Counted from the first letter of the stretch, positions 37,701-64,000 are shown. The stretch is DNA of 64,000 nucleotides from Dehalococcoidia bacterium (GCA_965203135.1 CBDBBO010000001.1:1780983-1844982); one strand, 5' to 3'. Numbers and translations are program-made. The notes: generated by a model from the letters alone, not told the origin.

Positions 37701-38159
37701 GATGCCGCGCCACTCGCAGCGCACGGAGTCTTCCGCCACGGCACCGCGAATCGCGATGTGCACCGGCGACGCTCCCGCCAAGCGCAGCCCCCGCTCCAGC
37801 ACGTCCTCCACGCTCGCCGCGTCCACCTCGCCACCCGACGCCGCGCCCCCGCTCGGCCCGCCCGAGAACAAGTCGGGTAGCAAGTGGGGAACGCGGGGAG
37901 TCGCGTCCGCCAGGGGCGTAGAGGTTGGCGCGGGAGTCGCCGCGGCTGTGGTTCGAGACGTTGCCGTCTCTGGCGATGCCGCATTGGGCTCCCGACTCGC
38001 CGCGGCGGTAGGTGTGGCCCCTGGCGTTGCCGCCACAGCCTGGGAGTGCCCATGCTCCGGTTCGGCTTGGGGCGATGTGGCATCCTGTCCGCAGCCGTAT
38101 GCAGCCAGCAGCAGCGTCAGTACCCACAGAACATTCGCCGCAACCATCCTCATTCTCAC
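34757..38159 (-). CDS. Lipoprotein B2: variable N-terminal domain + LRR + FN3 + cadherin + LRR + cadherin; frameshift at G7 tract 36823-36829
   Basis: ORFs 36612..38159 and 34757..37000 join as LRGAAPLDWS if one base of the homopolymer is removed; AYGC lipobox; ATDP[DE] cadherin motifs. Confidence 0.85.
34760..36220. repeat. About 1.46-kb near-identical direct repeat (cadherin-LRR-cadherin), partner 44392-45852
   Basis: Constant 9632-bp offset; near-identical translations in all frames. Confidence 0.95.
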
Positions 38160-38163
38160 TCCC

Positions 38164-44264: not shown

Positions 44265-44328
44265 AACGCGCGTCCTCTGCTGCCGTGGCGCTCTGCCTCA
44301 TGCCGAAAAGGAAGCGCCTCCCGCATGC

Positions 44329-44358
44329 AGTGTACACACCCGCAGGAGGGTGTCGCAA
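44329..44358 (-). promoter_or_regulatory. Putative sigma70 promoter of A2
   Basis: TTGCGA-N18-TACACT; homologous sequence lies upstream of A1. Confidence 0.6.
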
Positions 44359-44388
44359 CGGCGCGCCGCGAATGGAAAGCGGCGCACC

Positions 44389-47300: not shown

Positions 47301-47661
47301 TTGCGAATGCGGTAATGCTGCTCTCGCCGGACCCGCGCAGGTACTCGCTCACCGTCAGGTGAAACCTCAGGGCGACGTAGTGATAGTCGCTCCATTCTTC
47401 AGTCGTCGTCGTGGCAATCTCACTCGTCGTCGTGGCCAACCGCGCCTTGACGATGGTGTCGGCATTCACTATCCGCTCTTCTATGGACTGCTCTCCGTGG
47501 TAGGGCTGCTTCGCGCCTGCGGCGGCCGGAGGGATGCCCGTGGACGGGGGCGGCGCAGGGGGCGCTGCGGGCGGCTCTGCCTGTTCGTCTGGTCGCGTGA
47601 CCAGGGAACAGGCCAGCAGCGCGCAGGCCAGCAGCATCGCAATGATAAGTTGCGTCCTCAT
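44389..47661 (-). CDS. Lipoprotein B1: variable N-terminal domain + FN3 + cadherin + LRR + cadherin
   Basis: MRTQLIIAMLLACALLAC lipobox; C-terminal approx. 485 aa near-identical to B2. Confidence 0.88.
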   Translation of the reverse strand: MRTQLIIAMLLACALLACSLVTRPDEQAEPPAAPPAPPPSTGIPPAAAGAKQPYHGEQSIEERIVNADTIVKARLATTTSEIATTTTEEWSDYHYVALRFHLTVSEYLRGSGESSITAFAIQGGGYDTQSEAEDTEPGIAANKVTTWDDLEAIIFLNSDDHYDIFSAAVQGANDYFLSIGGPYQDRYSLQDRYSKLWLPSAGTSATGDDQEFLLAVPEPGKDTPTITIRELKSRIAAINAELNAGDGSEAYRNCVSIKYQAEREERHAQSEGRKLGIRAVLDTHRLVSGSPAGTVIFESDGFGIYPDTRMQTSLEGGDADLFETVDGPTTPDDWNRDGVLTDGIDFIRYTQSLRPVRPIPAGDYRFTVKDLEPNMIPCNAFLVTEWTVSAIAPEGTLHEAFFDPVTDGNAVAADSANGVLKLASFTDTNGATSTIQRIAWESGSVEMRLSPHTGLAGHRLDFIELDGTVSLSLSVSDAAVDAPNATLSWPVPSQSWEDGAKLMLRIREALPYAPAPTGLTAAPSAMDAADLSWNPVSGASGYQVQRRESGQEAWQSVDASVTGTTHKAAGLRCGATYEFRVGAYGDGTTYDRQAGLWSATATATTGACSRPPVFATSSYAFTIDAGAATGTPVGVVSATDPEGGAVSYSITAGNDAGVFAIDSATGRISVAGPLFLEPAPSRVLTVRAADADGGAATAKVVIAVTSVCRDGVVLPHTGADLVADCLILYHGVMRTLAGSFSLDWSADNPITDWQGVRVRGGRVQQLRLAELGLDGSIPPALGALTGLTRIDLYENALTGPVPPQLGQLSNLKHLFLFDNRLTGKIPPELGQLSNLARLDLDTNRLTGGIPPELGGLANLTHLHLFDNDLTGEIPPELGGLASLQVLYLSGNDLSGAVPARLGELTELTELNLSNNRLTGSIPPALAELAELEELWLSDNRLIGAIPPGLARLDLDYLFLAGNALTGCVPLGLREAANNDLADLGLPDCANRAPVFATSSYAFSVAENAATSTPVGTVSATDPDAGDAVSYSITAGNDGGEFAIDPATGALTVAGALSRKTAASHTLTVRAADGRGGAATATVVVSVTDPG

Positions 47662-47696
47662 GGCTACCCTCTCAACTTCAGGTGTCTCTCGGAGCA

Positions 47697-50600
47697 CTAC
47701 TTCGCGGCGTGACTTGAATGGCGCCTGTAGATGGCCTCGAGCTGCGCGATGTCCGTGTCCTGTATGCTCTTGGCATCCCAGTACGCATTCATTATGGCAA
47801 GCTCGGCGTTTAGTTGTGGGTCATAGTTTGTAGACGGGTGGGGACCCCGAACTGAGTAGAAGTCCGGCAGACCCAGTGTGTGTCCTAGCTCGTGGAGCGC
47901 CAGATGCTCGGCATGAACAAAGTAAATGCGGGGCGGGCCCCGTGTTATCCGTATGCCGCTCAGGTTCGGGTTGCTCGTCCATACATACCTTATCTGCTCG
48001 GCAGGCAAACACGGATTGAGAGGGCTGTCACACCCATAGGGCGGGTCTTCGAAGATCACGTCCATGTTCGTGATGTGGCCGCCTACACCGTCGCGTGTGG
48101 GTATGGGCGTACCGGTCAGAGCTACACAGGCGTGGCTGCTCCCGCATCCGGTAAGGTTGTCTCTGGGCGAGCTCGGGGCCACAGTCTTGATGGTGGCTGT
48201 GTACCCGTCAGAATTGCGGCTGCGGCAGTCGTTGTCGGCGGTATCGCATATGCTCAGGACGGGGTTGATGCTGGTGTTCCACTGGGCAATCGCCGTCGGT
48301 ATCGCGGTCTCAAGGCTCATCTCAGAAATGGCGCCTATGGTATAGCCGACGGTGTGGTCGGCCTGGTGCCCCCACGCGTGCGTTGGTTCTTCCGCCAAGA
48401 GCCCCGCGCTCGTGGCCGCGGGGCCGCTGCCCGAACCGTTATGACCCTTGACGGAGAACGTGTAGTCGGTTCCCGGAACCAGTCCGAGCACGTTGAGGGA
48501 GAATGTGGCTGGGAAGCGGGCGCTTCCAGGGCTGACCTCTACCCAGGGGAAGTTCGGTATCTGGGATACGGTATGGGGTCCACTGGCGAAGCTGAACTCC
48601 AACGATGGGCTGTGGGGCGTCGCCCTGACCATGTAGGACGATGCGTTGGCGACACTTGGCACCCATTCAAGCAGAAAGCCCCTGTACCCTATCAGGTGGC
48701 TGACTGTCGGAGTGGGCGGCGCCGCCAAAGGCGATTCATCAGTAACGGTCGTCGAGACCACGTTGGATTCGGCGGACTTACCCTGCACGCTCTGGGCCTT
48801 TATCCTGTGCTCGTATTCCTCGCCGGGAGTAAGCCCGCTGACAACGACCTGGATCCTGCCGCCGCTAGTGGTTATTGAGCCTATGGTCACGCCATCATGC
48901 GGTAGCCTCCTCCATCCGGAGTCGAGCGGATTCAGGGTCGGGAAAAGCTGCTCTACGTGGTAGTTGCCGTCCAGATCATCGGCGACGTCGGGATTGGGAA
49001 CGGGGTCCCAAGAGAGCGTTAACTGCCTGTATTGCATCGCCACGTACTGGCCTTGCAGGTTCTGTGGGGCCGGCCTCAGGTTGACGGTGACTTCGCTCGA
49101 ATCGGCGGTCTGGCTGTCTCTGACGGCTCGAATGATGAACATGTGATACTCAGCGGTGTCGAGGCCATCGACCATCGTTGTGGTTACGCCGCTTCCCAGG
49201 ACCTGAATCGTGGTGTAGACACAAGGGCCGGGCGGGATGCGACGGCTCCTGCAATGTCGCACCTCATAGCCCGTCGCGTCTGATACAGCGTCCCAGTCGA
49301 GGCTGACGGTACCCGCAGTCCTTGTAAGTGTGTAGGTGAGATTTTCAGGCATTTCGAGTGGCGGCGGCTCCACCGTCACCGTGAATTGGTTGAATGCCCA
49401 CAGTGTGCCGGGCCGGTTGGGAGGCCCGTCCCACGCAATGACCGTGACCGGCACGGAGCCTGCGGATAACGCGCCAAGTGTAAGATCGCTTCCGCTAAGG
49501 GTGGGATTCACGACGCTAGTGTCCCCCGACGTGACCGTGTAGATGAGAAAGGTTCCATCAGGGTCGCTGAAGGTATCAGTCAGGTCGACAGTAGTGGAGT
49601 CGCCGGCGGTCATCGTCATGGCGGCGATCGGCGAATCTACAAACGGCGGCTCGTTGACATTGGTGACGGTGACGGTCACGTCCAGATCACCACTGGAACT
49701 GCCGTCGCTGGCCGTGACCGTGACCAGGTATTCGTTGTCTTGGCCGTCGTCGGTGGGATTCTCGAAGTCGGGGGTATTGTTGAAGTTGAGTTTGCCGTCG
49801 GAGGTGATGTTGAAGACGCCTGCATCGGTGCCGCTTAACGACCAGCTTATGGACCTGCCGCATGAAACCGAAGCGTCGTAGGTCGCCACCTCGTCGTCAC
49901 CGTTCTCGGCATAGTTCGGTGAGGCCGGACCGTCGATGACCGGTGCCGAATACGTATCGTTGTCCAGATGGGTGATGCGGGACACGTTCGGCGAACCGTC
50001 CACGACTCCACTCGGCCGCCTGCCGAAGGTCAGTTCTACCTGCTCGTTCGCACAGTTCCTGTCGTTCGGGGCTACGTAGGGGAAGGTATTCCTCGTGGCG
50101 TTATTGCCGAAGGTCACCGTGCGGTTGGTCCCCGGGGTCGCAATTACTATTACACTCACGGTACGGCCCGGCGCCCTGCTCAGCGTGACTTCGATGTGCC
50201 CGGTCGTACCCTCGTTCACCGTGTAATTCCTGGAGCGGAACATCACACAGACTTCGTCATCGGCAATTACGATTTCCGAATCGTCCTGCGTGTCTTGCGT
50301 AGGCTCGGACACGTGAGACGGTAGGTTTCCTATGCTCAGTTCTATCCTCTCGTTCACACAATCGCCGTCGTGGTTGGTGCTGACAGTGAACGACTCTTCG
50401 GTATCGTGAGGCTCGAATGTCAGCTCGCCCCTGGTCAGGCCGCTCACGCTGTAGTCGTTGCCTTCGGCCGTATCCGCGGTTACCGACACGGGTATTCTGA
50501 GTCTGTGCCCGGTCGGATGGCTGAGATTGACCGTGACAACCGCGTTCGCTCCCTCGTTGACGTCGTATGTCTCGCTGCTGAACTCTACGGTCGGGTCCGC

Positions 50601-51294
50601 GACGTTCAGGAAGTGGTCGTGCAGACCGGATGAGGCGATGGCGTTGCCGCCCACCTCTTCCACCCACGCCCAGAGGTATGACCCCGGCGCCGCGCAGCCG
50701 TAGGCCTTGTAGCTGCTGGTGGCCGAGGTCGCGCCCCGTATGGTCTCGGTCTCTTTGAAGTCGGTGCAGCCTCGGTTGAACGCCGCGCTTACTCCGTTCA
50801 GCACGACTGTGTTCAGTTCGTATGTCTTGCCGCTGCTGAGTCCCGTCGCGCTGACCGTGAACTCGTCTTCCGGACCGCCCGGTATCAGGTCCGCCGAAGT
50901 GACGTCGTCGAGAGTCACCGTGAGCGGCGCCTGTCCGACTAGTCCTCGTGGAGTGACGGTTACGCTCTCTTCCTCGATTACGTGTTCGGTGCCGGACGCG
51001 ACCAGCCGCACGTAGCCGTCGCCGACCGAGCAGGCGTTCAGTGTGACCCAGGTGGGCGCGGCGGCGGGCTGGGTGGCTCCGGGCGTGGCGCCGTCGCACG
51101 CCTGGCCTTCCGGCGTGAAGTGCTCGCTGTAGTGGATTTCGACTTCCGTACCGAACGGGTCCACGTGCAAGCCGACGGCGAGCGTCGTCTGCCCCACCTG
51201 CACCACGCCCGGCACCACTACCAGTTCTCCGGTGGGCGTAGAGGTCGCGGTAGACCCCTCCTGCGCCCGTACCGTCTCTATCCCATTCGACGGG
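47697..51294 (-). CDS. Protein A1: paralog of A2 with a different metallopeptidase tip; 5'-truncated (no original start or signal peptide)
   Basis: Stalk homologous to A2 (offset 7113) up to 51294; first in-frame start is GTG 51218; HELGHTLGLPD and AIMN. Confidence 0.8.
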
Positions 51295-51388: not shown

Positions 51389-52453
51389 TCAGCGTCCTCG
51401 CGACCATGGGCGCCTCCGCGCGCTCGCCAAATGCCTCGTCACCAACACCAGGCCGCCGACGATGAGGACGCTGAGGTAGGTGATCGAGCGGTCGACGAGG
51501 GCGATGGAGACGGCCTCGTGTCGGGCGAGGCTGAGCGCGAGCAGACCGGTCACGCCGGGCTCGACGGCCCCCACTCCTCCCGGTGTCGGCACGGTGCTCA
51601 GCAGCGCGTGGGCCAGCGCCACGATGGCCAGCATGGGCAGCCCGACCTCCGCGCCTAGCGCCTGCACGACGAAGCCGAGCCGCGCGATTTCCATGAGCCA
51701 GCCCAGCAGGCCCAGCGTGAACAGCGTGGGCAGTTGCTTGAAGCTGCCGAACGCCCCGCTCCGGAAGCTCAGGAAGGCCGCCTCGAGCCGCTGGGGCAGC
51801 AGCCGCGCCAGCCGAGCGCCGAACGCCTTGATGGCGATGACCAGCGCGGCGAGCGCGACGGTCATCAGCGCGGCCATCGCGGCGGCCCTGAACACCAGGC
51901 TCCTCGCGTCCGGCGTGTCAGCGGTCAACGCCAGCGCCAGCACGCTCACGGCGACGATGGCGGCGACTGTGGCCATGTCCATCACGCGCTCGGCCAACAC
52001 CGTGCCCAGGCTCCACGAGAAGCCGGCACGCGACTCCTGGGAGAACAGGTAGGCGCGGTAGGCGTCGCCGAGCCTGAGCCACGCGATGGAGTTGACGAAC
52101 CAGCCGGCCACGATGAGCGAGGCGCACCGGACCGCCGAGGGCAGCCGCGTGTCCGGGCCGTCCTCCAGTCCCGCGTTCTTTGCGAGAAGCCGCCAGCGCA
52201 GTCCGCGGAACGCGAAGCTGACGTAGTACAGCACCAGGGCCAGCGCGTACAGCCGCGGGTCCATGGAGCGCAGGTTCTCCAGGGTCGCGCCCCAGTCGAG
52301 ATCGAAGCGCGTCGACAGAAAGACGACGAAAGCCGCGGCCACCGCGAAGGACAGCAGCGTCGGCAGCGAGAGGACTCGCCGCCGCAGCGACATGGCGGGC
52401 GCGGAGTCCTGGCTAGGGCCGGTCTCTCCGCTTCCGAGGTTCGGTTCGCTCAC
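51389..52453 (-). CDS. Lysylphosphatidylglycerol synthase TM / flippase-like (UPF0104) protein
   Basis: RGLRW, LGDAYR, ERVMD, TPGGVGAVE. Confidence 0.88.
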   Translation of the reverse strand: MSEPNLGSGETGPSQDSAPAMSLRRRVLSLPTLLSFAVAAAFVVFLSTRFDLDWGATLENLRSMDPRLYALALVLYYVSFAFRGLRWRLLAKNAGLEDGPDTRLPSAVRCASLIVAGWFVNSIAWLRLGDAYRAYLFSQESRAGFSWSLGTVLAERVMDMATVAAIVAVSVLALALTADTPDARSLVFRAAAMAALMTVALAALVIAIKAFGARLARLLPQRLEAAFLSFRSGAFGSFKQLPTLFTLGLLGWLMEIARLGFVVQALGAEVGLPMLAIVALAHALLSTVPTPGGVGAVEPGVTGLLALSLARHEAVSIALVDRSITYLSVLIVGGLVLVTRHLASARRRPWSRGR

Positions 52454-53229
52454 AGCGGGCGCTTGCCCGGTATGCCGGGCCTACGGGGGTAGCGGTCCGG
52501 GGTGGGGGCCACCTTGTCCAGCACGACCAGGGCGCGGGGACGGTCCAGTCCGGGCACGTCGACGCTCCTGACCTCGCGGATGGCGCCGCCGAGGGTGCGG
52601 ACGGCGGTCTCGGCGGCGGCGGCCTCGGCGTCGGCGTCCGCTCCCTTGGATGCGACGACCACGCCCCCGACCCGGCAGAGCGGCAGGGTGAGCTCGGCGA
52701 GCGCGTTCAGCCTGGCGACGCCGCGCGCGGTCACGACGTCGAACGCCTCGCGCGCCAGCGGGTCGCGGCCCAGCGTCTCGGCGCGGCAGGCCAGCACCTC
52801 AACTCCGTCCAGGCCCAGTGACTCTCCCAGCCCGCGCAGGAAGTCGGCCTTCTTGCGGGTGGCCTCCACGAGGGTAACGCGAAGGGACGGTTCGGCTATC
52901 AGCAGCGCGATGCCCGGCAGGCCCGCGCCGCTGCCCACGTCGGCCAGGCGGCCCGACCGCAGCAGCGCGGGCGGGATGGCCGCCAGCACGCTGAGCGAGT
53001 CGAGATAGTGTACGGCCTGCGCTCGTTCCCAGTCGGCTACGGAGGTGAGGTTGGCGCGGCGGTTCCCGCGCTCCAGCTCCCGGTGGTAGCGCCGGAAGGT
53101 GTCGAGCTGCGCCGGCGTGAGCGGGACGCCGAGCCGTTCCGCGCCCTCGCGCAGCGCCGTCGCGTCCTTCGTTTCAGTCGGCGTTTCATTCGGCGGGGGC
53201 GCGGCGGCGCGCCGTGAGTGTTCGATCAT
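52450..53229 (-). CDS. rsmG: 16S rRNA m7G527 methyltransferase
   Basis: NLTS, HYLDSL, DVGSGAGLPG, RAE, YPRRPGIP; start uncertain. Confidence 0.93.
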   Translation of the reverse strand: MIEHSRRAAAPPPNETPTETKDATALREGAERLGVPLTPAQLDTFRRYHRELERGNRRANLTSVADWERAQAVHYLDSLSVLAAIPPALLRSGRLADVGSGAGLPGIALLIAEPSLRVTLVEATRKKADFLRGLGESLGLDGVEVLACRAETLGRDPLAREAFDVVTARGVARLNALAELTLPLCRVGGVVVASKGADADAEAAAAETAVRTLGGAIREVRSVDVPGLDRPRALVVLDKVAPTPDRYPRRPGIPGKRPL

Positions 53230-53252
53230 TCGGTGCGGATGGCCGGCGGCGC

Positions 53253-53810
53253 TCAGCCCTGGCGGGCGTACTCTGTCGCCAGCATCCCCATCACCACCGA
53301 GTCGAACCGCGAACCCTCGTGCGGGCGGCTCTTTCGCAGCGTTCCCTCGTGTACGAACCCGAGGTGGCGGAACAGCGTGAGTGCGGCTGCGTTGTACTCC
53401 GGAATGTCCGCCCAGACGCGGTACAGCCCGTAATCGTCGAACGCCTTCTCCAGCGCGGCGCGCATGGCCGTGGTGCCGAAGCCGTGATGCCACATGTCCT
53501 TGCGTCCGATGAGTATCGATATCTGCCCGTCGCCCAGCGATTCCTCGATGGCCAGATGAATCTCGCCAATGTGCTCGTCGTTCTCGCTGTAGATGGACAG
53601 GATGCGATGCTCGGGGTCGTCGAAGATTCGCCGCCACTCCTCATCGGAGACGTCCAGCACCTCGTTCGGATGGTATCCCAGGTGCGCGGGGTCGCCGTAG
53701 GAGTAGCGTCCGAACCAGCTCTCCGCCACCTCGTCGTCGTCCAGCCAGGTGCGTATGCGGGACACGTCCTCCCGGGTCACGTCCCTCAGCGTAACGTGAT
53801 GTTGTTCCAT
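53253..53810 (-). CDS. GNAT acetyltransferase (RimJ/RimL-like)
   Basis: WHHGFGT, EYNAAA, LGFVHEGTLR. Confidence 0.9.
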   Translation of the reverse strand: MEQHHVTLRDVTREDVSRIRTWLDDDEVAESWFGRYSYGDPAHLGYHPNEVLDVSDEEWRRIFDDPEHRILSIYSENDEHIGEIHLAIEESLGDGQISILIGRKDMWHHGFGTTAMRAALEKAFDDYGLYRVWADIPEYNAAALTLFRHLGFVHEGTLRKSRPHEGSRFDSVVMGMLATEYARQG

Positions 53811-53864
53811 TGGTTACCTCCTGGGTGTACAGCCGCGACACCCGCGTCCCCTGTCCTACCCGTT

Positions 53865-55163
53865 CTAGCCGGCGGCCGCTCCGGCGCCGGCCCTATCGGG
53901 CAGCCTCAGCATTACGGTCAACACGATCGTTCCGACCAACACGAGGGCGCCGCCGTATACGAACGTCGCCTGGACGCCGTAGTTGTCCCACATCAGGCCG
54001 GCTATCACAGGCGAGAGGGTGCCGATGAAGCTCGCGCCGTAGATGAGCGACACTATCGTCGACTGGACCGCGCCCTCCGCGGCCTCTATGGCCGCCGCGA
54101 TGAATATGGCGTGCAGCGCGTACAGCACCGTTCCCATCACCATGATGGTAACGACAAGCCAGCTTATCTGCCAGAAGAACGGCTCGGGGTCGGCGAACCC
54201 GAGCGTCATGGCCAGCAGGCTCATCAGGAGCATCGACGGCACCAGCACCGGCTTGTAGCCGAACTTGTCGGCCAGATAGCCCATCACCGGCTGGGCCACG
54301 ATGCCCACGACCTGGGCGAGAGACAGGTAAATCGCCACCTTGCTCGCCGAGAAACCCAACCCTCCCTGCTCAACACTTTCCCGGAGATAAACGGGAAGAA
54401 AGATCATCACCGAGCTCTGGCCCACGCTGCGGAGCGCCGTTACGATGACCAGCACGTAGAGCGCCTTGCGCTTGAGGAGCGACAGCAGCGAGGAGAAGTA
54501 CTCCCGCACGGACGAGACGGCCTGCATCTCGCCGCCGGGCACGTTGCGCATGAACAGCCAGATGGCGACGGCGCAAACCAGCGCGGGGAAGAGGCTGTAT
54601 ACCAGCACGGAGTCCCAGCTCATCGCCAGCCAGCCGAGGAGCACGACGCCCGCCAGCAGCGGACCGGCCACCTCGCCCACGCTGCCGCCGGTGCCATGCA
54701 GCGATATGGCGAAGCCGCGGCGGTCGGGGAAGCGGCGGGACAGCGCGCCGATGGCGGGCGGGTGGTACAGCGACGGCCCTACGCCGACCAGCAGCATGAT
54801 GGCGAGGACGGCGATGAAGATCAGGTTCTCGGAGACGACGCTGTCGGCTATGCCCAGCAGGTAGTAGGACACTCCCATCATCAGGAGCGATATGCCGAGC
54901 ATGAGCGAGGCGCGGTCGGCGAACCGGTCGCCGAGAAATCCGGCGAAGACGGTGGTGACCCAGCTCGTCGCCTGGCGGGAGAACGCCAGCGTGCCGAGCT
55001 GGGTGCCGCTGAGGCCGAGCCCTATCTTGATTTCCGGGAACAGTATGGACTGTAGCGCTGAGTTGTAAACGTGCTTGACGGCGTGGCCCACGACGACCGT
55101 TGCCGCCAACTGGTTGCGCCCGCGCCTGAGCTGGGGCGACACCTCTACGGCTTCTGTTGACAA
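53865..55163 (-). CDS. MFS transporter (Fsr-like)
   Basis: About 12 TM, GFLGDRF / GYLADKFG motifs, YHPP; TTG start after GAGGGAG. Confidence 0.9.
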   Translation of the reverse strand: MSTEAVEVSPQLRRGRNQLAATVVVGHAVKHVYNSALQSILFPEIKIGLGLSGTQLGTLAFSRQATSWVTTVFAGFLGDRFADRASLMLGISLLMMGVSYYLLGIADSVVSENLIFIAVLAIMLLVGVGPSLYHPPAIGALSRRFPDRRGFAISLHGTGGSVGEVAGPLLAGVVLLGWLAMSWDSVLVYSLFPALVCAVAIWLFMRNVPGGEMQAVSSVREYFSSLLSLLKRKALYVLVIVTALRSVGQSSVMIFLPVYLRESVEQGGLGFSASKVAIYLSLAQVVGIVAQPVMGYLADKFGYKPVLVPSMLLMSLLAMTLGFADPEPFFWQISWLVVTIMVMGTVLYALHAIFIAAAIEAAEGAVQSTIVSLIYGASFIGTLSPVIAGLMWDNYGVQATFVYGGALVLVGTIVLTVMLRLPDRAGAGAAAG

Positions 55164-55233
55164 GTCGGCTCCCTCGATTCCGGTTGGATGCACGCGCAAT
55201 TATAGCACGTAGGCGAGCCAGGCTTGGGGGGGC

Positions 55234-55527
55234 GTTTCTTGTTCGATTCTGTTGCATTCTGTTGGATTCGTAGCTGGGCGTGTCGTTGGTCCTGCTCGAT
55301 TCTGTAGTGCCGGAGTGGGCAATTCAGGACATAGGCGTCGCGCCGCGCGGCAGAATGGGATAGGGGCAGGAGTTCACCCCCATCCTAGCCCATTCGGCAG
55401 GCTCAGGGCAGGCTCTTCCCCCGTCAAGGGGGAAGGGACATTGGGAAGGCCCGGGTCGGTCCCGCGGGCGGGTTTGAAACCCGCCCCTACCGTGTGCGAT
55501 GATAGCACGTATGTGCGTATACTTCAA
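55234..55527 (-). repeat. Dispersed promoter/operator + CCAGCTACG module, copy 4 (interrupted by REPs)
   Basis: TTGAAG-N17-TATCAT with CGCAC-ATAC-GTGCT box; CCAGCTACG at 55277-55269, then GAATCCAAC AGAATGCAAC AGAATCGAAC. Confidence 0.7.
55375..55490. repeat. REP-like composite repeat
   Basis: CACCCCCATCCTAGCC...CTTCCCCCGTCAAGGGGGAAGGGAC plus GGGCGGGTTTGAAACCCGCCCCTAC; same parts as 8119 and 28283. Confidence 0.75.
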
Positions 55528-55998
55528 GAGCGGTGGCGAGATTGGGGGATCAGGGCGAAATTGTGGGAAGAAATTGCGCACGAATGGGGATGGGGCGGGG
55601 CGTGCGTGGGGCGTGCGTGGGGCAGGGCTGGGGAACGGATGGCGCGGGAAAGTGACGGAATTTTCGGGTGCGCGGGGGGCGGATGGGGTCGGGCGTGGGC
55701 GACGCGGCAGACCGACCACGAGGCTAATAGTCATACAAAGTGGCAGTCACTTGGCTTAAGGGTTATACGGACGTTACCCAAATGTTGTTGCCCAGGTGGT
55801 ACAGTAGGCTGTGGTTTCGCCGAAGTGACCTGGCCCAGGTACTCGTATGACTACGCGGTGGCTGGCTCAGCGTTGATGTTCCTGCCACAGTGGCTTCCGT
55901 TCAGTGTGACACTGGCCTTAAGGGCCGGAAAGAGGTCAAACTAGAACAAGCTGTGAGGGAGTCGGGATTGTAGCTGGAGTGCCTGGAAGGGAAGGATC

Positions 55999-56442
55999 AT
56001 GTCGAGGCTAGGGCAAACTGCTCTCCGTTTAGGAATACTAATCGGACTGGGTAGTTTCACAGGTGTGTTGTCGGCGATTGCTGTGTCCGTGGCTCTTACT
56101 GATGTGGACTTTACTCGCTCCGTAGCCAGTGTCGCTGGCCATAATCTCGATGGGTACAACGCGATATGGATGGGTGTGGGCTCGGCGACATGGATTGTGA
56201 CAGTGGTGATCGCATCGCTGCCGAGGGAGGAGAACCGTAGACACGCTGTCTGCTTTGGAGCGGCTACTCTGGCGGCCATACTGTACGCGCTCTCAGGGAT
56301 TGTGTGGATAGTGTTTTTCCCCCCGCATCCCGATTGGATTTTCCCGCCCCATTTGTTCGCCGGCTTCTTGCTGTTGACAGGCATTCCGATGACGTGGGGG
56401 GGAGCGGTTCTGGCAGTGAGGAAATGGAGAGGCCTGGAATAG
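55999..56442 (+). CDS. Small 4-TM membrane protein (candidate orphan immunity/partner)
   Basis: AAGGA RBS, four hydrophobic segments, lower GC, at the head of the cassette array. Confidence 0.7.
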   Translation: MSRLGQTALRLGILIGLGSFTGVLSAIAVSVALTDVDFTRSVASVAGHNLDGYNAIWMGVGSATWIVTVVIASLPREENRRHAVCFGAATLAAILYALSGIVWIVFFPPHPDWIFPPHLFAGFLLLTGIPMTWGGAVLAVRKWRGLE

Positions 56443-56451
56443 GTTTGTGGA

Positions 56452-59396
56452 GTGAGTCTATCAGGCTGCGCGACGATGCGCTCGGTTGCGGGCCTGTCGT
56501 GCGGGACGACGTACCGGTTCCGGGTGAGGGTGCGTGGAGACGGCGACCCCTATGCGAACGGCAACTGCCGCGCGGCGCCGCTCCCACCTCGACCACTCGG
56601 ACCTTCACGGGTTCTCGCGACTTCACGTTCACCGGGTGCGCTTACGGGACCCACACCTTCAGGCTGCTCACGTCGGGAGGGGCGCAACTGGCGAGCGTCG
56701 TGATACGGGTAGAGCGTCCCACGCCCACCCCCACTCCCCCGCCGCCGCCCACGCATCCCAACCTGTCGATGTCCTTCACGTCGTCCCCTTCGTCCATCGT
56801 CGCGGGCCGGTCGCACGACTTCGGCGTGGTAGTCTCGGGCACGACCCCCGGCCGCCGCTACCGGATCATCGTCTACGCCGTCCCGCGCATATCCGCCGCA
56901 GGGTTCGACGCGACATGCTCTCGCAGCTACAAGCTCACACCCGAGTTCGGAGGCTCGGCATCCCAGGTGTCCAGGTCGTTCACGCTGTACGGGTGCGCCG
57001 AGGCGCAGAACATCACCCTGGAGGCCCAGTTGCTGGAGCGCGCGCTCGACAGCCGCCGGCTCTCCGACATCAAGACCATCACGGCCAGCCTGTCGGTGAC
57101 CGCGCCGCCGCCGAACCGCCCGCCGGAGTTCTCGAAGGCTACCTACAGCTTCGGCGTGTCGGGCAGCGCGCCGGTGGGCGCGAGCGTCGGCTCAGTCTCG
57201 GCGACAGACCCGGACGCCGACGGCGTTTCCTATTCCATCACCGGGGGCGATAGCGCGGGAGTGTTCGCCATGGGCGCGTCCGACGGCGCGATCACGCTCG
57301 CCAAGAAGCTAAGCGCGGGGACGGCCTCCTACAGCCTGGCGGTCCGGGCCGCCGACGGCAGGGGCGGCGCGGACACGGCGAGCGTGAGCGTGGACGTGGC
57401 GTTGCCGCCCACGATCCGGGCGGACGCCCTTAGGCCGTTCGTGGGGCAGGAGGTGACGTTCAGGGCGACGCCCGCGGCGGGTAGCGGCCCGGCTGTGCTG
57501 CACTGGTGGCAGGAGTGGCGGGGCGGCAGGTGGGTGGACCTTGGGTCCGCGACCACCTGGGACGTGCACCGGGTGACGTCCAGCGTGTCCGGGTTCAGGA
57601 CGTTCAGGGTGAAGGTCTCCTACCTGTCGAGGATCAAGGCGGAGTCAGCGCCCATCACCGTGGAGTGGCGGCCGGTGGTGGTCGGGGTCACGTCGTCGCC
57701 CGCCTATCCGCGGGCCGGGGACGCCGCGACGAGCACTGTCACGCTGACCGCCGGGGGCGACGTGCCGTCGGGGGCCATGTACCAGTGGCAGGAGTGGGCC
57801 GGCAACCGGTGGGCGAACCTGGGGGCCACGACGACCACGCCGACGAAGGATGTGTGGTCGGCTGTGCGGGGCACGAAGAAGTACAGGGTGGTGGTGAGCC
57901 ACGCGACGGCGTCGACAGCGGTGTCGGAGGCTGTGTACGTGACCTGGGACGAGTGGGCGATCGTGGCGGACATGATACGCGATCTGTCGGTGGCGGTGGC
58001 GTCGTCGACGGCGTACACCAGGGCCCAGACCGCGCTGGTGAGCTGCATGAACGGTGGCGGTGGAATCCAGGGGCAGGCGCCGACTACGCCGCCCGCCGTG
58101 ACGTTCGCCAGCTTCGACGACATCCTGGGGCGCTACACGGGGGACGTGAAGACGAAGATGGATGCGGGCGGCGATTGCGCCCCCCAGTCCAGCACCATGT
58201 TCAGCACGAACCAACGCGCGACGCGCTCGGAGCTTGGGAAACTGAAGGCGGGCAACGCGGAGTACGCGGCATGGTTGGCAACACGCCGAGGGCAGCTCTT
58301 CGAGGCGAACCTCGGCGACCCCGACGAGATCAAGTTGGTGTCGTATCTGGGAGCCACCACGTTCGAGCCGGGCGAGTTTACGAGGCCGCTGTACTCCGCC
58401 GCCAGTGGCGAAGGGGGAGCGTCCGGGCAGGATGCTCCAGAGCCAACTGAACTGCCAGTGCTTGGGACTGGCCTCGACTGTCTGCCTGCGAACGTGAACG
58501 GCGAGGACTTGTCGCTGAGCAACAAGCTCGTGGTGCTCAACTGCCTTGTGTTCTCGACACCGCACGATTTCTGGGTAGGTAGCCCAGACGGGACCGGTGA
58601 TGTAGAGAGTTTGAGAACAGGCTCTCAGGTCGACAGATGGGCCTGGCTCGCGTTCGGTGATTGGGAATGTACAAGCTTCTTACAAGGGCCCGTGCCGTCA
58701 TGTCTAAAGCACGACGTGGCTTGGGGCAGTCTCAAGAAATTCGTGAAGAACTCGGACGATGATGACTTGCTGCCGGAGGATGACGATACACTGGACAAAG
58801 CCTGGAACCCACGGAACAAGGCTCTCGCCGACGCCAAGTTCAAGTCAGATATTGCTAAACATGGCTGCCAAAACTCCGACTTCCGGGCACGTATATCGGT
58901 TTGCCCACCTGTCAATCTGTTAGGTATAGCGACGAACCATTCGTTGTCGGAGCTATACTTCTTCGGGGTAGCTAACATTAACGCCAAGAGTTGGGTCTAC
59001 ACCGACTATGACTCAGAGCACAGCGACCGCAATCCCCGGTTGGCCGTGTACGAGATTCCAAGTGTGTCCGACGTACGAGTGTCAAGGTTACGGTCGCACC
59101 AGTCCGATGCTACGACTTATCGAGTGAGTTGGGCGTACAACCCTGGATCCGTGCGGACGGCTACTGTGTCCTCTTATAGGCTATGCTGGGAGACCGCTAA
59201 AGGCCGCGAAATATGTCGTCATGCGAAAAACGGCAATGCCCTGAGCTATGATCTGGTCGTGCCTGTTGATCTGATAGTGCCTGTAGAGATTGTGGCACTC
59301 AAATCGATCGCGATCGCTCCCAACCGTTGGCGATTCGTGGGTCTCGGGGGCGTCCACTATCCTCCGCAGCAATTTGACCTGAGATATGGAGAGTGA
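56452..59396 (+). CDS. Cassette P1: cadherin + repeated WQEW beta-domains + phospholipase A2-like C-terminal domain; 5' end degraded
   Basis: FN3 remnant (GLSCGTTYRFRV) is out of frame with the main ORF; no signal peptide; SCLKHDVAW...NKALADAKFKSD. Start uncertain. Confidence 0.75.
57162..58000 (+). repeat. Conserved stalk repeat, copies at about 60727-61282 and 63287-64000
   Basis: Near-identical DNA at offsets 3282 (from 57445) and 6125 (from 57162). Confidence 0.95.
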
Positions 59397-59399
59397 GCC

Positions 59400-60065
59400 T
59401 TGGTTGTTGTCTTCATAATCGTTGTCATTGTGTTGTTCTGGATGGGCATAGCGATGTGCTCTCGGCACTGGGCAGACATCATTCTCGCCCTCGGCTTTAG
59501 CTCCGCATTTGTGGCCGTTTTGGCGTTTCTGATCTTGGGGACGCCCCTGGTTGAACTCGTAAACGACAACCCCACCTGCACCAAACTGCTTTGTGGAGAG
59601 AATGTGCAAAGTTTCGTTGTGTTGTCCCCCATCCTGGTGACAGTCCTTTTCTTGCCTTTGCTGTTTCTTGTCGCCCGCAAGAGAGGGATCGATGCTTCGG
59701 CTGTGAGTCCAATAGCTGTTTACGTGGCTGGCTACGCACTGTGGATGACTGTGACTTTTGGCTACATCGCTTATTTGGTCTACTCGGCCATGGACTATCA
59801 TCTGTACCGCGTCGAGCGTGGGGCGGAGGGAACAGAGGGTGTCATTACAATGTGGTTTGTGATGATTGCCCTGAGTTCGTATACATGGGCAGCGTCATCG
59901 TTGGGATTGCGCCGTGCTTACGCTCAGTATAGAGCAGAGCAGGAAGAGCTTCCCCGGTATATTCCAGAGGCCAGCGTGTTCATGCATCCGTTGGCATGGC
60001 CCTTCGTGTGGATTGTGGTCTTTCCGATTGTTTGGGTTATCACCTACGTGATTGTTTCGCCTTAG
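59400..60065 (+). CDS. Multi-TM membrane protein (candidate immunity for P1)
   Basis: Starts 3 nt after the P1 stop; 5-6 TM; VARKRG loop. Confidence 0.7.
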   Translation: MVVVFIIVVIVLFWMGIAMCSRHWADIILALGFSSAFVAVLAFLILGTPLVELVNDNPTCTKLLCGENVQSFVVLSPILVTVLFLPLLFLVARKRGIDASAVSPIAVYVAGYALWMTVTFGYIAYLVYSAMDYHLYRVERGAEGTEGVITMWFVMIALSSYTWAASSLGLRRAYAQYRAEQEELPRYIPEASVFMHPLAWPFVWIVVFPIVWVITYVIVSP

Positions 60066-60110
60066 ACCCGACCTTGGAGAAGTGCGAGCAGGACATTTGG
60101 CGGCGCGACG

Positions 60111-62654
60111 ATGCCAGTTGTTTCGAGGGAACCGGTTTGGTCGGAGTATCGTCGGCCGTGGGGGTACGAGCGGCGCGTGGAGGCAGACGAGTTGTTGGGG
60201 AGGACGCGGACGGCGACGGGCCTGGACTGCGGCACCACCTATCACTTCCGGGTAAGCGCGCGCGGCGATGGTTCGCCGTACTCGACGTCGTTTGGGAGCG
60301 CGTCGGCCAGCGTGTCGGGGGCTACCTCGGCGTGCCCGTCCGCGGCGGTTGAGATCACGCTCGAGCCCGAAAGCCCGTTCGTGGGGCAGGCGGTGAGGAT
60401 GGCGGCGTCCACGACGGTGGCGAGCGGGCAGGCGCCGTCGTACCAGTGGCAGGAGTGGAGCTCGGGCAACTGGGTGAACCTGGGAACGGCGTCGGCGTCC
60501 AAGCAGAGGAGTGTTTCGTCCAGCGCATCGGGGCTGCGGATATTCCGGGTCGTGGTGGCTTATGCTGGGGGAGCGACCTCGGAATCCTCGCCGGCAACGA
60601 TCCAGTGGCGGCCAATGAGCGTGAGCGTGTCGGCGTCTCCCGCGTATCCGCGGGCGGGCGCCGAGGCGACGAGCACGGTTACGCTGACGGCTGAGGCGGA
60701 CGCTCCGTCGGACGCCGTTTACAGGTGGCAGGAGGTGACGTTCAGGGCGACGCCCGCGGCGGCGAGCGGCCCGGCTGTGCTGCACTGGTGGCAGGAGTGG
60801 AGTGGCGGCGGGTGGGTGGACCTTGGGTCCGCGACCACCTGGGACGTGCGCCGGGTGACGTCCAGCGTGTCCGGGTTCAGGACGTTCAGGGTGAAGGTTG
60901 CCTATCTGTCGAGGATAAAGGCGGAGTCTGAGCCTCTGACCGTGGAGTGGCGGCCGGTGGTGGTCGGGGTCACGTCGTCGCCCGCCTATCCGCGGGCCGG
61001 GGCGCCCGCGACGAGCACGGTGACGCTGACCGCCGGGGGAGATGTGCCGTCGGGGGCGGAGTTCCAGTGGCAGGAGTGGCGCGGCAACCGGTGGGCGAAC
61101 CTGGGGGCGGCCAGCGCGTCGCCGACGAAGGATGTGTCGTCGGCTGTGCGTGGCACGAAGAAGTACAGGGTGGTGGTGAGCCACGCGACGGCGTCGACGG
61201 CGGTGTCGGAGGCTGTGTACGTGACGTGGGACGAGTGGGCGATTGTGGCGGACATGATACGCGAGTTGTCGGCGGCGGTTGCGACTTCCACCGATTACAA
61301 GGAGAAGCAAACAGCACTGCTCAGTTGCATGAATGGTCCGGGCGGCGCGACTTCCACAACCTCTACTTACGCCTCCTTCGACGACATCCTGGCAAGGTAC
61401 GCCACGACGACCAAGGCGAAGATGGAAGGGACGTGCAGTACACAGGCGGACACCATGTTCAAGGCGGTTCAAAGACAGTCCCGCATTCAGTTGAATAACC
61501 TCACGAGCGGGACATTCACCGCTGCCTTGCTGTACTCCGGGCTGCTGGAGACGCCGCATGGCAAGCAGTTCAAGGCGAGCGTGGGCGAGCCGCACATCAC
61601 CAAGCTGTTTATCTACCTGCTGGCCTATGAGCCGCCCGAACCGGCCACTGGCTTCGAAGGGGCTTCGGACACCCCGACAACTGTCCAGCGGGCGGGATTC
61701 GACTGTCTCCCCTGGAGCGGTCGAGAGCCTTCAAGTGTGGAGAACAAGATTGCTGTGGTTAACTGCCTTGTGTTCGACACGCCACACAGCTTCTGGGTGG
61801 ACAACGCAGCCGAACTCCATAATCGTATAGACCGCAGTTATCAACGGCGAGACGGTGTATTAGTCGGCCGACTTGACTGGTTGGGTTACGGTGACTGGGA
61901 GTGCACGCTCTGGGCTGACGGCCCGTTACCGACATGTTACAAGCACGACGTGGCTCTTTCGAGTCTCCAGAAATTTGCAGGCGTGTCGTCGAGCACAGAA
62001 GAGATGGACGAGGCTTGGAATCCGAGAAACAAGCATCTGGCAGACGCCAAGGCTATGGCTGACATCGAGAAGTATGATTGTCAGAACCCCACTCTTATAG
62101 CCATCATATTTCCATTTGCCTGCGTATTGCCTGCGGGGACTGGTCCGCTTACCACCGCCGGAGTTATGCACTTTGGAATGAATAAGCTAAACTCCCCCTG
62201 GCCTGTCACAGTGCAGGACATTGAGCATGCTGAGTCAAATCCTCAATACATTCGATGCACTCAGCCAGCGGTGACCAGTCTTGATGAAGTCAGTCACGTC
62301 AAAGAGTCCCGATTCAGGGTGGTCTGGACAATATCAAGAAGCTGTACTGGCACATCTGTCCAACATTCCATTAGAGTGGTGGGATACACAGGGGCGTCAC
62401 CATACGACCGGAATTCACTGACAATCAACGATAGCGGTGCCGTGGAAGATGACGATACCACGAACACTCTCAGCTTTGAATTCGAAGTCCAGGGAGTTGA
62501 TGCTCTCGATAGTGGGACGCCGGTTAGACTAGAAATAACAATTGCAATGCATCCACGCGATGTGGATTATGGTCAACTGCTCGATCCAGTTCTCCCAGGT
62601 GTTTATACATACCCCGTTGCTGTGTTTTCACGGGAGTTTGAGATAGGAAACTGA
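60111..62654 (+). CDS. Cassette P2: FN3 remnant + WQEW repeats + phospholipase A2-like domain; no signal peptide
   Basis: TCYKHDVAL...NKHLADAKAMAD; GDWECT and AWNPRNK shared with P1. Confidence 0.78.
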   Translation: MPVVSREPVWSEYRRPWGYERRVEADELLGRTRTATGLDCGTTYHFRVSARGDGSPYSTSFGSASASVSGATSACPSAAVEITLEPESPFVGQAVRMAASTTVASGQAPSYQWQEWSSGNWVNLGTASASKQRSVSSSASGLRIFRVVVAYAGGATSESSPATIQWRPMSVSVSASPAYPRAGAEATSTVTLTAEADAPSDAVYRWQEVTFRATPAAASGPAVLHWWQEWSGGGWVDLGSATTWDVRRVTSSVSGFRTFRVKVAYLSRIKAESEPLTVEWRPVVVGVTSSPAYPRAGAPATSTVTLTAGGDVPSGAEFQWQEWRGNRWANLGAASASPTKDVSSAVRGTKKYRVVVSHATASTAVSEAVYVTWDEWAIVADMIRELSAAVATSTDYKEKQTALLSCMNGPGGATSTTSTYASFDDILARYATTTKAKMEGTCSTQADTMFKAVQRQSRIQLNNLTSGTFTAALLYSGLLETPHGKQFKASVGEPHITKLFIYLLAYEPPEPATGFEGASDTPTTVQRAGFDCLPWSGREPSSVENKIAVVNCLVFDTPHSFWVDNAAELHNRIDRSYQRRDGVLVGRLDWLGYGDWECTLWADGPLPTCYKHDVALSSLQKFAGVSSSTEEMDEAWNPRNKHLADAKAMADIEKYDCQNPTLIAIIFPFACVLPAGTGPLTTAGVMHFGMNKLNSPWPVTVQDIEHAESNPQYIRCTQPAVTSLDEVSHVKESRFRVVWTISRSCTGTSVQHSIRVVGYTGASPYDRNSLTINDSGAVEDDDTTNTLSFEFEVQGVDALDSGTPVRLEITIAMHPRDVDYGQLLDPVLPGVYTYPVAVFSREFEIGN

Positions 62655-62657
62655 CCA

Positions 62658-63221
62658 TTGCTGCTCATCTATGCGACGGTAGTTTCTGTGATCGGCACGG
62701 CAGTTGCCGTAGTTTCCTTTGGCATACTGTGGACACCACTCGCCGCCATCATTTGCGGACTCATTGCGCGCAAACAAGGGCGTAGTGTCAAGGACTACGC
62801 TCTGGCAGGGGCACTGTACTCTGCGCTGTCTTTCCTACCGTGGGTCTATTTCGTGTGGGATAGGCTGTTGGACAGGCGAACTCCCGGATTTTTCCCGGTT
62901 TCAACTTACTTTGCCATCTACGGACTTGTGTGGCCGGCGTCACCATTTGCCAGCCTGTTCTTATACGCTTCTGCCAACGAACCAATACCTGCGTGGATAG
63001 GAGTTCTAATCACACTTGTCAACCTTGCCAGTGTCGGAACTTGGGCGGTGACACTCTGGTACCTGTATCGGACACATAGTCACTTGCCGCCTGGCGACCT
63101 CTTCATTCATCGTGCGTATTTGGTCCCGTTCGCGTTCCCCCCTATTGTGTTCGTATTGCTTCTAGTGCAGTCAGTGGTCATGACCCTTTATACCACACCT
63201 TCGAACCCCTTCCTCAATTGA
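62658..63221 (+). CDS. Multi-TM membrane protein (candidate immunity for P2)
   Basis: Starts 3 nt after the P2 stop; about 5 TM; IARKQG loop. Confidence 0.72.
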   Translation: MLLIYATVVSVIGTAVAVVSFGILWTPLAAIICGLIARKQGRSVKDYALAGALYSALSFLPWVYFVWDRLLDRRTPGFFPVSTYFAIYGLVWPASPFASLFLYASANEPIPAWIGVLITLVNLASVGTWAVTLWYLYRTHSHLPPGDLFIHRAYLVPFAFPPIVFVLLLVQSVVMTLYTTPSNPFLN

Positions 63222-63229
63222 CTTCGTCG

Positions 63230-64000
63230 ATGAACTGCCCCGCGATAATCGCATACGCAATCGCCTCGCCGTATTCGACTTCCTTCGGCAGCGCGCCGGT
63301 GGGGGCGAGTGTCGGCTCAGTCTCGGCGACAGACCCGGACGCCGACGGTGTTTCCTATTCCATCACCGGGGGCGATAGCGCGGGAGTGTTCGCCATAGGC
63401 GCGTCGGACGGCGCGATCACGCTCGCCAAGAAGCTCGGCGCGGGGACGGCCTCCTACAGCCTGACGGTCCGGGCCGCCGACGGCAGGGGCGGCGCGGACA
63501 CGGCGAGCGTGAGCGTGGACGTTGCGCTGCCGCCCACGATCCGGGCGGACGCCCTTAGGCCGTTCGTGGGGCAGGAGGTGACGTTCAGGGCGACGCCCGC
63601 GGCGGGTAGCGGCCCGGCTGTGCTGCACTGGTGGCAGGAGTGGCGGGGCGGCAGGTGGGTGGACCTTGGGTCCGCGACCACCTGGGACGTGCACCGGGTG
63701 ACGTCCAGCGTGTCCGGGTTCAGGACGTTCAGGGTGAAGGTCTCCTACCTGTCGAGGATCAAGGCGGAGTCAGCGCCCATCACCGTGGAGTGGCGGCCGG
63801 TGGTGGTCGGGGTCACGTCGTCGCCCGCCTATCCGCGGGCCGGGGACGCCGCGACGAGCACTGTCACGCTGACCGCCGGGGGCGACGTGCCGTCGGGGGC
63901 CATGTACCAGTGGCAGGAGTGGGCCGGCAACCGGTGGGCGAACCTGGGGGCCACGACGACCACGCCGACGAAGGATGTGTGGTCGGCCAATCGGGGCACG
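63230..64000 (+). CDS. Cassette P3, partial (runs off window): third copy of the stalk
   Basis: Open frame from ATG 63230: MNCPAIIAYAIA-SPYSTSFGSA-PVGASVGSVSATDPD...; near-identical to P1 57162-57875. Confidence 0.75.
   Translation, partial: MNCPAIIAYAIASPYSTSFGSAPVGASVGSVSATDPDADGVSYSITGGDSAGVFAIGASDGAITLAKKLGAGTASYSLTVRAADGRGGADTASVSVDVALPPTIRADALRPFVGQEVTFRATPAAGSGPAVLHWWQEWRGGRWVDLGSATTWDVHRVTSSVSGFRTFRVKVSYLSRIKAESAPITVEWRPVVVGVTSSPAYPRAGDAATSTVTLTAGGDVPSGAMYQWQEWAGNRWANLGATTTTPTKDVWSANRGT

Follow-up and report, generated by a model that had tools for sequence, protein, structure and literature searches.

The stretch analysed here, hereafter the window, comprises 64,000 nucleotides from a Dehalococcoidia bacterium (GCA_965203135.1, CBDBBO010000001.1:1780983-1844982; C1:1780983-1844982 in our numbering of a genome of 3.49 Mb in three contigs that is 95% complete). 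Towards its end lies a tandem array of a composite unit: near-identical DNA encoding a protein stalk leads into a C-terminal module of about 480 aa, the tip, which is divergent and low in GC, and behind it lies a gene for a small protein with four to five transmembrane (TM) segments. Within the window this unit is complete twice and begins a third time, the third copy ending 2.1 kb beyond the window. The tips contain a core remotely related to microbial secreted phospholipases A2 (PLA2), and the array and its relatives are considered below with respect to their anatomy, the two protein families that they encode and the predicted function of these.

Anatomy of the array

The tip-bearing open reading frames (ORFs) of the first two units span 56304-59396 (1030 aa) and 60111-62654 (847 aa) on the + strand, each with its TM gene behind it (Table 1), while that of the third runs from 63218 onward and is still open at the window end. 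In the next 11 kb it closes at 769 aa and is followed, 21 nt after its stop, by a hydrophobic TM ORF of 200 aa, after which come housekeeping genes. TM genes 1 and 2 begin only 3 nt past the stop of the respective tip, and these two junctions are alike: a purine-rich, Shine-Dalgarno-like run, TGA, three bases and TTG. The GC fraction is 0.69-0.74 in the stalks versus 0.49-0.55 in the tips and TM genes. ORFs, sequence identity and GC content confirm the repeated stalk-tip-TM unit of the original prediction, twice complete and a third time begun, with the third now completed from outside the window.

Identity between the units is highest in the stalk. The DNA at 57445-57744 equals that at 63570-63869 at 100%, and 60727-61026 matches at 93%. 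A comparison of cassettes 1 and 3 shows how the DNA diverges along the unit: between 57180 and 57990 the two are 94-100% identical, over the opening part of the tip 66-97% and near the catalytic motif 52-68%, and from 58880 through the membrane gene about 40% identity is left. The cassette 1 stalk also shows 89% DNA identity to the main gene of the congener G001. A cadherin/FN3 scaffold had been proposed for the stalk: its cadherin half is upheld by Pfam (E 4.4e-10), whereas Pfam detects no fn3 domain in the cassettes, in which FN3 is represented just by end remnants at their left (5') edges. The remaining stalk is made up of two or three immunoglobulin (Ig)-like repeats of about 93 aa (the 'WQEW' repeats, repeat family D3).

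Table 1. Features of the array, in window coordinates (window-equivalent coordinates beyond position 64000)
Feature	Position	Strand	Basis or remark
Genome-specific segment in place of the main-gene head	55861..56567	+	blastn vs G001 orthologous locus
Orphan 4-TM ORF	55999-56442	+	within 55861..56567; outside the TM family
FN3-end remnant, out of frame with cassette 1, left joint	56452..56563	+	translation motif
Cassette 1 stalk: beta-rich segment, cadherin (57144-57398), two WQEW Ig-like repeats	56568..57944	+	Pfam, repeats
Tip module 1, 483 aa: helical N-part, PLA2-like core, variable C-terminal domain	57945..59396	+	
Tip 1 PLA2-like core	about 58434-59132	+	Cys-x-x-His-Asp at 58701
TM gene 1, 221 aa, TTG start, candidate immunity protein	59400..60065	+	TM-family HMM E 8e-30
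Cassette 2 stalk: truncated FN3 end and three WQEW repeats	60111..61226	+	
Tip module 2	61227..62654	+	tip HMM E 1e-143
Tip 2 PLA2-like core	about 61671-62327	+	Cys-x-x-His-Asp at 61935, Leu replaces the usual aromatic
TM gene 2, 187 aa, TTG start	62658..63221	+	TM-family HMM E 1.6e-40
Cassette 3 5' part: joint remnant, cadherin, WQEW repeats	63218..64000	+	on to window-equivalent 65527
TM gene 3	window-equivalent 65549-66151	+	200-aa TM ORF

A search with the stalk returned 39 matches, 36 of which carry the PLA2-like tip family, the other three being distant Bacteroidota Ig-repeat proteins. No unrelated toxin domain alternates with it on this stalk: the tip family is one and the same in the 36 true stalk relatives, and the variation therefore lies within one toxin family and not among toxin folds. 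A separate stalk remnant lies on contig 2 of this genome (L014:9791-11460, minus strand) between aminotransferase genes, with three FN3 domains in one frame, while an FN3 end and three WQEW repeats are encoded in a second frame; the remnant breaks off after the first 20 or so residues of the tip module and lacks a TM gene.

The 5' end of the array differs from that of its closest counterpart. At the orthologous locus of G001, the flanks of which are 90-93% identical to those here (window 52946-55230 and 66156-70324), a single 1739-aa gene with a signal-like N-terminus is found together with TM genes. The first 2.4 kb of that gene, its head (L040 2944-5344), has no counterpart here; window 55861-56567 stands in its place, and synteny resumes at window-equivalent 66156. 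This genome contains nothing that corresponds to residues 1-758 of the full-length relative P0024, and the homology of cassette 1 to P0024 begins at 56568, in a frame that differs from that of the FN3-end remnant just before it. The FN3 C-terminal motif of this remnant recurs at the start of cassette 2 and, in full-length relatives, ahead of the stalk repeats. The head of the first gene, i.e. the signal peptide and about 760 aa, is therefore replaced in this genome. As cassettes 2 and 3 begin inside or after the FN3 end, the replacement leaves all three cassettes headless and their tips without an export signal, and the comparisons with P0024 and G001 bear out the earlier remark that no cassette has a signal peptide or an intact 5' end. 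At the 5' end of cassette 2, neither a signal peptide nor a clear ribosome-binding site was seen.

Misassembly of the repeats was considered and is rejected in view of the agreement with short-read contigs and the recurrence of the same anatomy in other genomes. Read contigs from two runs of one study, which may share their sample with the assembly, show 0 differences across 55639-57215, 58365-60756 and 61214-63340. The matched contigs span the joints between P0005 and cassette 1, from tip 1 through TM gene 1 to cassette 2, and from tip 2 through TM gene 2 to cassette 3, and they break solely inside the stalk repeats. A scan of 54800-64000 with Rfam gave no match, promoter- and terminator-like sites were not above shuffled expectation, and no tRNA gene was found near the array. 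The sequencing runs listed as matching included none of RNA.

The tip module and its PLA2-like core

The last 480 or so residues of the array proteins have no Pfam, NCBIfam or direct PDB match. The Cys-x-x-His-Asp motifs noted at the outset are present in both window tips (Table 1), and profile comparisons relate the region around them remotely to a known enzyme family. A profile of the core only, built from 27 sequences (A5) and run against 177,635 PDB sequences, returned four matches at E<=10, all of them microbial secreted PLA2: 4aup_A (E 0.0046), 7ygk_A (0.0079), 8k1w_A (0.022) and 1faz_A (0.057), the last being identical in sequence to 1kp4 and 1lwb. With a profile of the whole module (A3), three PLA2 chains likewise came out on top, at E about 0.2. 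The similarity of the A5 profile to solved PLA2 sequences can be graded as weak to moderate. Comparison by hhalign with one canonical PF09056 ORF from another Dehalococcoidia-class genome gave an E-value of 2.4e-4 and a probability of 43.7%, with the Cys-x-x-His-Asp, the later Asp-x-x-Phe, two Cys and the following helix aligned. When a Streptomyces plasmid homologue was added, the resulting two-sequence profile was aligned in the same register with a probability of 7.0% and E 0.0051.

Conservation was counted over 181 relatives that span the core. The His is kept in all 181, the adjacent Asp in 180, the later Asp in 179, the two flanking Cys in 181 and 181, and the Cys after the second Asp in 172, such that the near-invariant set of the tip core consists of the His, both Asp and six Cys; the C-[ST] of the calcium loop is kept in 169. 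Four positions after the His, Tyr (102 relatives) is the commonest residue, ahead of Trp (37), Phe (28) and Leu (12), and the array itself has Trp in cassette 1, Leu in cassette 2 and Tyr in cassette 3. The Trp and Leu in place of Tyr, on account of which activity had been called unproven, are accordingly ordinary variation within the family. As judged from these sequence comparisons, the core is a remote, divergent relative of the group XIII/XIV-type microbial secreted PLA2, with almost invariant catalytic residues, and the PLA2-like character originally assigned to the tips stands in this form. Like the secreted enzymes of Streptomyces violaceoruber (1faz/1kp4/1lwb) and Tuber borchii (4aup), it features the His-Asp pair, the Asp-x-x-Phe helix and the Cys pattern; unlike these free-standing proteins of about 120 aa, it measures about 210 aa within a 480-aa module on a stalk, the Asp of its calcium loop is shifted by one position and the PF09056 hidden Markov model (HMM) does not match it. 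A small free-standing canonical PF09056 PLA2 ORF is encoded at L075:1486-1770 in another Dehalococcoidia-class genome (G332), the sole match among the 301 Chloroflexota genomes sampled, and a word-index search with the canonical PLA2 ORF returned just that ORF.

The tip module matches 91 proteins at E<=1e-3 in a word-indexed search, and an exhaustive search of 1.84 billion proteins, counted by representatives of 50%-identity clusters, extended the family to 243, of which 111 reach E<=1e-30. None of the family members listed with source records bears a named annotation there. The module is nearly always C-terminal and stands behind diverse scaffolds with FN3, cadherin, PKD, LRR and PPC domains. 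In a set with one genome per GTDB species it occurs at 33 loci, 32 of them in records titled Dehalococcoidia and one in a record titled Chloroflexi, and no relative of the tip core was detected in viral contigs. A sub-group (L054, L062, L067, L069 and L072) has the module at the start or in the middle of the protein, with other domains after it, and mostly shows no adjacent TM-family gene. Tip and TM protein constitute two unannotated families, found solely in Dehalococcoidia/Chloroflexi metagenome-assembled genomes.

The membrane partner and the relatives of the array

Across 38 loci (L042-L044 being left out as duplicates of L036, L040 and L041), 61 of the 70 small multi-TM ORFs on the array strand fall into one family by phmmer single linkage, and no third gene family is conserved: tip and TM protein are the sole conserved families. 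The HMM of the TM family finds exactly three members in this genome, all within the array. The family has no Pfam, NCBIfam or PDB relative, its profile giving chance-level capsid matches only when run against the PDB, and it has no invariant polar residue, which fits a binding protein better than an enzyme. The hydrophobic ORF at 55999-56442 had been taken as an unpaired membrane gene of the cognate type; this assignment is rejected, as the TM-family HMM does not match it at E<=10, hhalign gives a probability of 0.1% and no homologue is found in eight congeners.

A TM-family gene lies directly behind the tip in 39 of the 52 tips in which the C-terminal end is present, and behind all three in this array. 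Among the 41 related genomes, tips occur in eight including this one, i.e. in six of the eight other congeners and in one genome of another family in the order. The TM family is found in the same eight genomes and additionally in G031 (one contig, 96% complete), which has seven TM-family matches in tandem clusters among housekeeping genes; neither a protein query nor a profile detected a tip in G031. Of these clusters, which lie at L083:6899-9069, L084 and L085, the first adjoins an IS630-like transposase pair and housekeeping genes. At L057:5393-8835 and L058:5293-8600, five and six tandem TM-family genes, respectively, follow a single tip-bearing gene. Both arrangements resemble those of immunity genes.

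The anatomy seen here, with 5'-truncated orphan units as in polymorphic toxin arrays, recurs in seven other genomes searched, in keeping with the original prediction. In G004, G006, G007, G008 and G030 a long first gene of 790-1710 aa (incomplete in one case, where the locus ends) stands ahead of shorter cassettes and fragments, some of them frameshifted; first genes of 1300-1740 aa are the general form among the arrays. 5'-truncated tip-TM cassettes with the conserved junction form arrays in these five genomes and in the present one. Full-length stalk genes are found in relatives and not in this genome, and at least 13 of the 26 long relatives inspected begin, as judged by eye, with a signal-like hydrophobic N-terminus.

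Co-variation between the two families was assessed with a Mantel test on 30 of the 39 tip-TM pairs, namely those with a full module, and 2000 permutations. TM identity correlates with identity in the C-terminal domain of the tip (r 0.75), in the core (0.70) and in the N-part (0.52), and 0 of the 2000 permutations reached these values. The membrane genes do co-vary with the tips, as had been anticipated, and they track in particular the variable half. Cassettes 1 and 3 are also mosaic: their variable halves are 81-90% identical to proteins of other genomes, as against 17-54% to the other cassettes of the array, and their N-parts, at 81% identity, are closest to each other. This is the pattern that cassette exchange with local homogenisation would give. 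Both the mosaic and the identity gradient along the unit fit the earlier suggestion that tips are swapped by recombination, with the restriction that the exchange would take place within one tip family.

A putative toxin-immunity system and its alternatives

We consider it probable that the array belongs to a Dehalococcoidia-specific, Sec-dependent polymorphic toxin of the PLA2 type that is paired with a polytopic membrane immunity protein and is disarmed in this genome. In its intact form, which is seen in relatives, the putative toxin is encoded by one long gene for a putative signal peptide, a variable modular stalk, WQEW repeats, a junction and the tip. The modular parts of the stalk comprise PT-rich linkers, FN3, cadherin, LRR or PKD domains and two or three WQEW repeats, and a conserved T-W-D-E-W junction joins them to the tip module of about 480 aa. 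The tip begins with a helical N-part, continues with a disulfide-rich His/Asp PLA2-like core and closes with a hypervariable C-terminal domain. Once exported, the tip would hydrolyse the membrane phospholipids of a neighbouring cell, while the 4-5-TM protein in the membrane of the producer would neutralise the cognate tip, probably by binding its variable C-terminal half. The downstream 5'-truncated cassettes of tip and TM gene would serve as a reservoir, from which a tip could replace the expressed one via homologous recombination in the conserved stalk and N-part, and the TM genes of the reservoir could widen the range of immunity. The locus as found here is most likely such a disarmed reservoir or an immunity island.

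Several known systems offer precedents for parts of this proposal. In Bacillus subtilis, WapA-WapI mediates Sec-dependent contact-dependent inhibition in a monoderm, with RHS repeats, nuclease-type toxins and soluble immunity proteins. The system described here resembles it in the signal peptide (in the relatives), the long stalk, the variable C-terminal putative toxin, the adjacent candidate immunity gene and the lack of a dedicated secretion machine, and differs in the absence of RHS repeats, the lipolytic-type tip and the integral membrane partner. With the orphan cassettes of CdiA and Rhs systems it shares 5'-truncated pairs downstream of a main gene and a conserved junction that permits recombination; unlike these, it shows a single tip family and no TpsB, Rhs, type VI (T6SS) or type VII secretion system (T7SS) context, the TPS domain family lying outside the search. 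The lack of Rhs, hemagglutinin and T6SS markers noted in the window extends to the whole genome for the RHS repeat, the T6SS sheath and, in addition, WXG100, each with 0 matches against detected positive controls, while the TPS/haemagglutinin family was not searched. Polytopic membrane immunity proteins are known for pore-forming colicins and for the T7SS pair TspA-TsaI. The TM proteins of the array are comparable to these as small multi-TM proteins encoded beside a putatively membrane-acting toxin, although no sequence relation to the TM family was found.

PLA2 domains in polymorphic toxins have themselves been catalogued, under the name Tox-PLA2, by Zhang, de Souza, Anantharaman, Iyer and Aravind (2012; PMC3482391), and the original view of the array as an undescribed class does not hold in this respect. 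The Tox-PLA2 entry gives the 1kp4 PLA2 fold, the motifs D-x-C-[ST] and C-x-x-H-x-x-x-Y-x-N, Chloroflexi among the phyla, general-secretory export and RHS/ALF repeats, and lists no immunity protein. In line with that entry, the proteins described here present a PLA2-type C-terminus on a long filamentous secreted protein, a general secretory route and the Cys-x-x-His...Tyr motif with flanking Cys. They depart from it in a stalk of cadherin/FN3/LRR domains and WQEW Ig-like repeats instead of RHS/ALF, in a core too diverged for PF09056 that contains an inserted W-N-P-R-N-K segment, in a helical N-part of about 165 aa and a variable C-terminal domain, and in a conserved polytopic membrane partner. 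Some members of the tip family may already be counted in the supplementary lists of that catalogue (PMC3482391). What is new here is the divergent, enlarged module, the stalk type, the single tip family and the conserved polytopic partner. Our literature search met the term 'Tox-PLA2' in no other paper, saw no later work on polymorphic toxins with a PLA2 tip and found nothing on this system.

A number of observations weigh against the toxin-immunity interpretation. On the side of the enzyme, the PF09056 model gave no match at E<=10 to the two tip cores, nor in a six-frame search of the genome, although the same model finds a canonical member in another Dehalococcoidia-class genome; the hhalign probabilities are low with one canonical sequence (43.7%) as with two (7.0%); the Asp of the calcium loop (Asp in 127 of the 181 relatives, Asn in 27) lies one residue further from the Cys than in D-x-C-[ST]; and the Asn of the Y-x-N motif is not kept. 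On the side of the system, the hallmark diversity of unrelated toxin folds is absent. No TM-family gene is adjacent to 13 of the 52 tips, which include internal-module proteins, one locus with three TM genes upstream, two cases whose TM ORF falls into another cluster and one whose TM gene lies 302 nt off. The signal-like N-termini of the relatives were identified by eye. Co-variation of adjacent genes is to be expected from co-inheritance alone, with kin being non-independent. Finally, no cassette is Sec-exportable as written, and so the system may do nothing in this genome.

Of the other explanations, the one that fares best, though we regard it as unlikely, is a surface enzyme directed at host or prey. 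The stalk would then bind a eukaryotic host or other cells and the tip would remodel or harvest their lipids; the TM protein would just shield the membrane of the producer or handle the products, and the host, not bacterial rivals, would drive the diversity. Such a role would suit the adhesion-type domains of the stalk (eukaryote-like cadherin, FN3, LRR), the cluster of giant LRR/cadherin/FN3 proteins that adjoins the array in the window and the single tip family on the stalk, and PLA2 toxins acting against eukaryotes are noted in PMC3482391. It would leave the tandem TM-only clusters unaccounted for in a genome where the tip was not found, as well as the co-variation of each TM protein with the hypervariable end of its own tip, and 5'-truncated orphan pairs typify bacterial toxin-immunity conflicts.

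A further possibility, which we hold to be very unlikely, is that the TM protein docks a secreted adhesin, by the C-terminal domain of the latter, to the membrane of a wall-less monoderm; the PLA2-like core would then be structural or lipid-binding, and the cassettes would vary antigens or adhesion as silent pilS or vls cassettes do. The near-invariant His, both Asp and six Cys argue instead for a working enzyme, and neither the TM-only clusters without a stalk gene nor the five to six TM genes per tip are suited to a one-to-one anchor. Two observations are compatible with docking: the TM protein co-varies most strongly with the last domain of the tip, and reading of the relatives brought to notice neither a sortase-type signal nor any other anchor signal. 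Antigenic-variation loci, in addition, typically have silent 5'-truncated cassettes located behind an expression site.

That the three cassettes are pseudogene-like remnants, functionless here and kept by chance after the loss of the head, is highly improbable in spite of the replaced head, the out-of-frame left joint of cassette 1, the missing clear ribosome-binding site of cassette 2, the tipless stalk remnant on contig 2 and promoter-like sites no more frequent than in shuffled sequence, since each of the three cassettes retains an open tip ORF (769-1030 aa), an open TM ORF and every key residue, unlike the frameshifted fragments in relatives, and the TM genes retain coupled start sites. 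This explanation bears on how the locus stands in this genome, and a toxin-immunity role for the family would not conflict with it.

If the toxin-immunity interpretation is followed further, we would tentatively, and at somewhat less than even confidence, regard the 4-5-TM proteins as the first family of immunity proteins against PLA2-type polymorphic toxins. With the tips they might constitute a contact- or proximity-dependent competition system of its own in uncultured Dehalococcoidia, operating with a cadherin/FN3/LRR stalk and no dedicated secretion machine, with allelic tip-immunity types common across species and with genomes that carry immunity only. Lipid attack and membrane-embedded neutralisation would, in that event, be a main route of kin discrimination in this lineage, and immunity proteins that neutralise a lipase while embedded in the membrane would work in an unusual way. 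The array and its relatives offer a testable toxin-immunity pair, two unannotated protein families and a first view of putative inter-cell conflict genes in Dehalococcoidia, a lineage known almost solely from metagenomes.

Some features of the neighbourhood deserve mention in their own right. A dispersed intergenic repeat of about 65-80 nt at window 55374-55450 has at least 60 copies of 84-96% identity on all three contigs, and appears in public short-read contigs as a depth spike of about 150 versus about 10 with many loose ends. The minus strand of 34757-51218 encodes several giant proteins of surface type in succession, among the domains of which are LRR, cadherin, FN3 and Calx-beta. The last protein (47697-51218) ends in an H-E-x-x-H-x-x-G-x-x-D zinc-protease-like motif unnamed by Pfam; these giant proteins may be other proteins with a stalk and an enzymatic tip. 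Also on the minus strand are a 1315-aa DEAD/DEAH helicase with a DUF559 endonuclease-like domain (17628-21575) and, three genes upstream of the array, a membrane protein of the lysyl-phosphatidylglycerol-synthase type (51389-52453).

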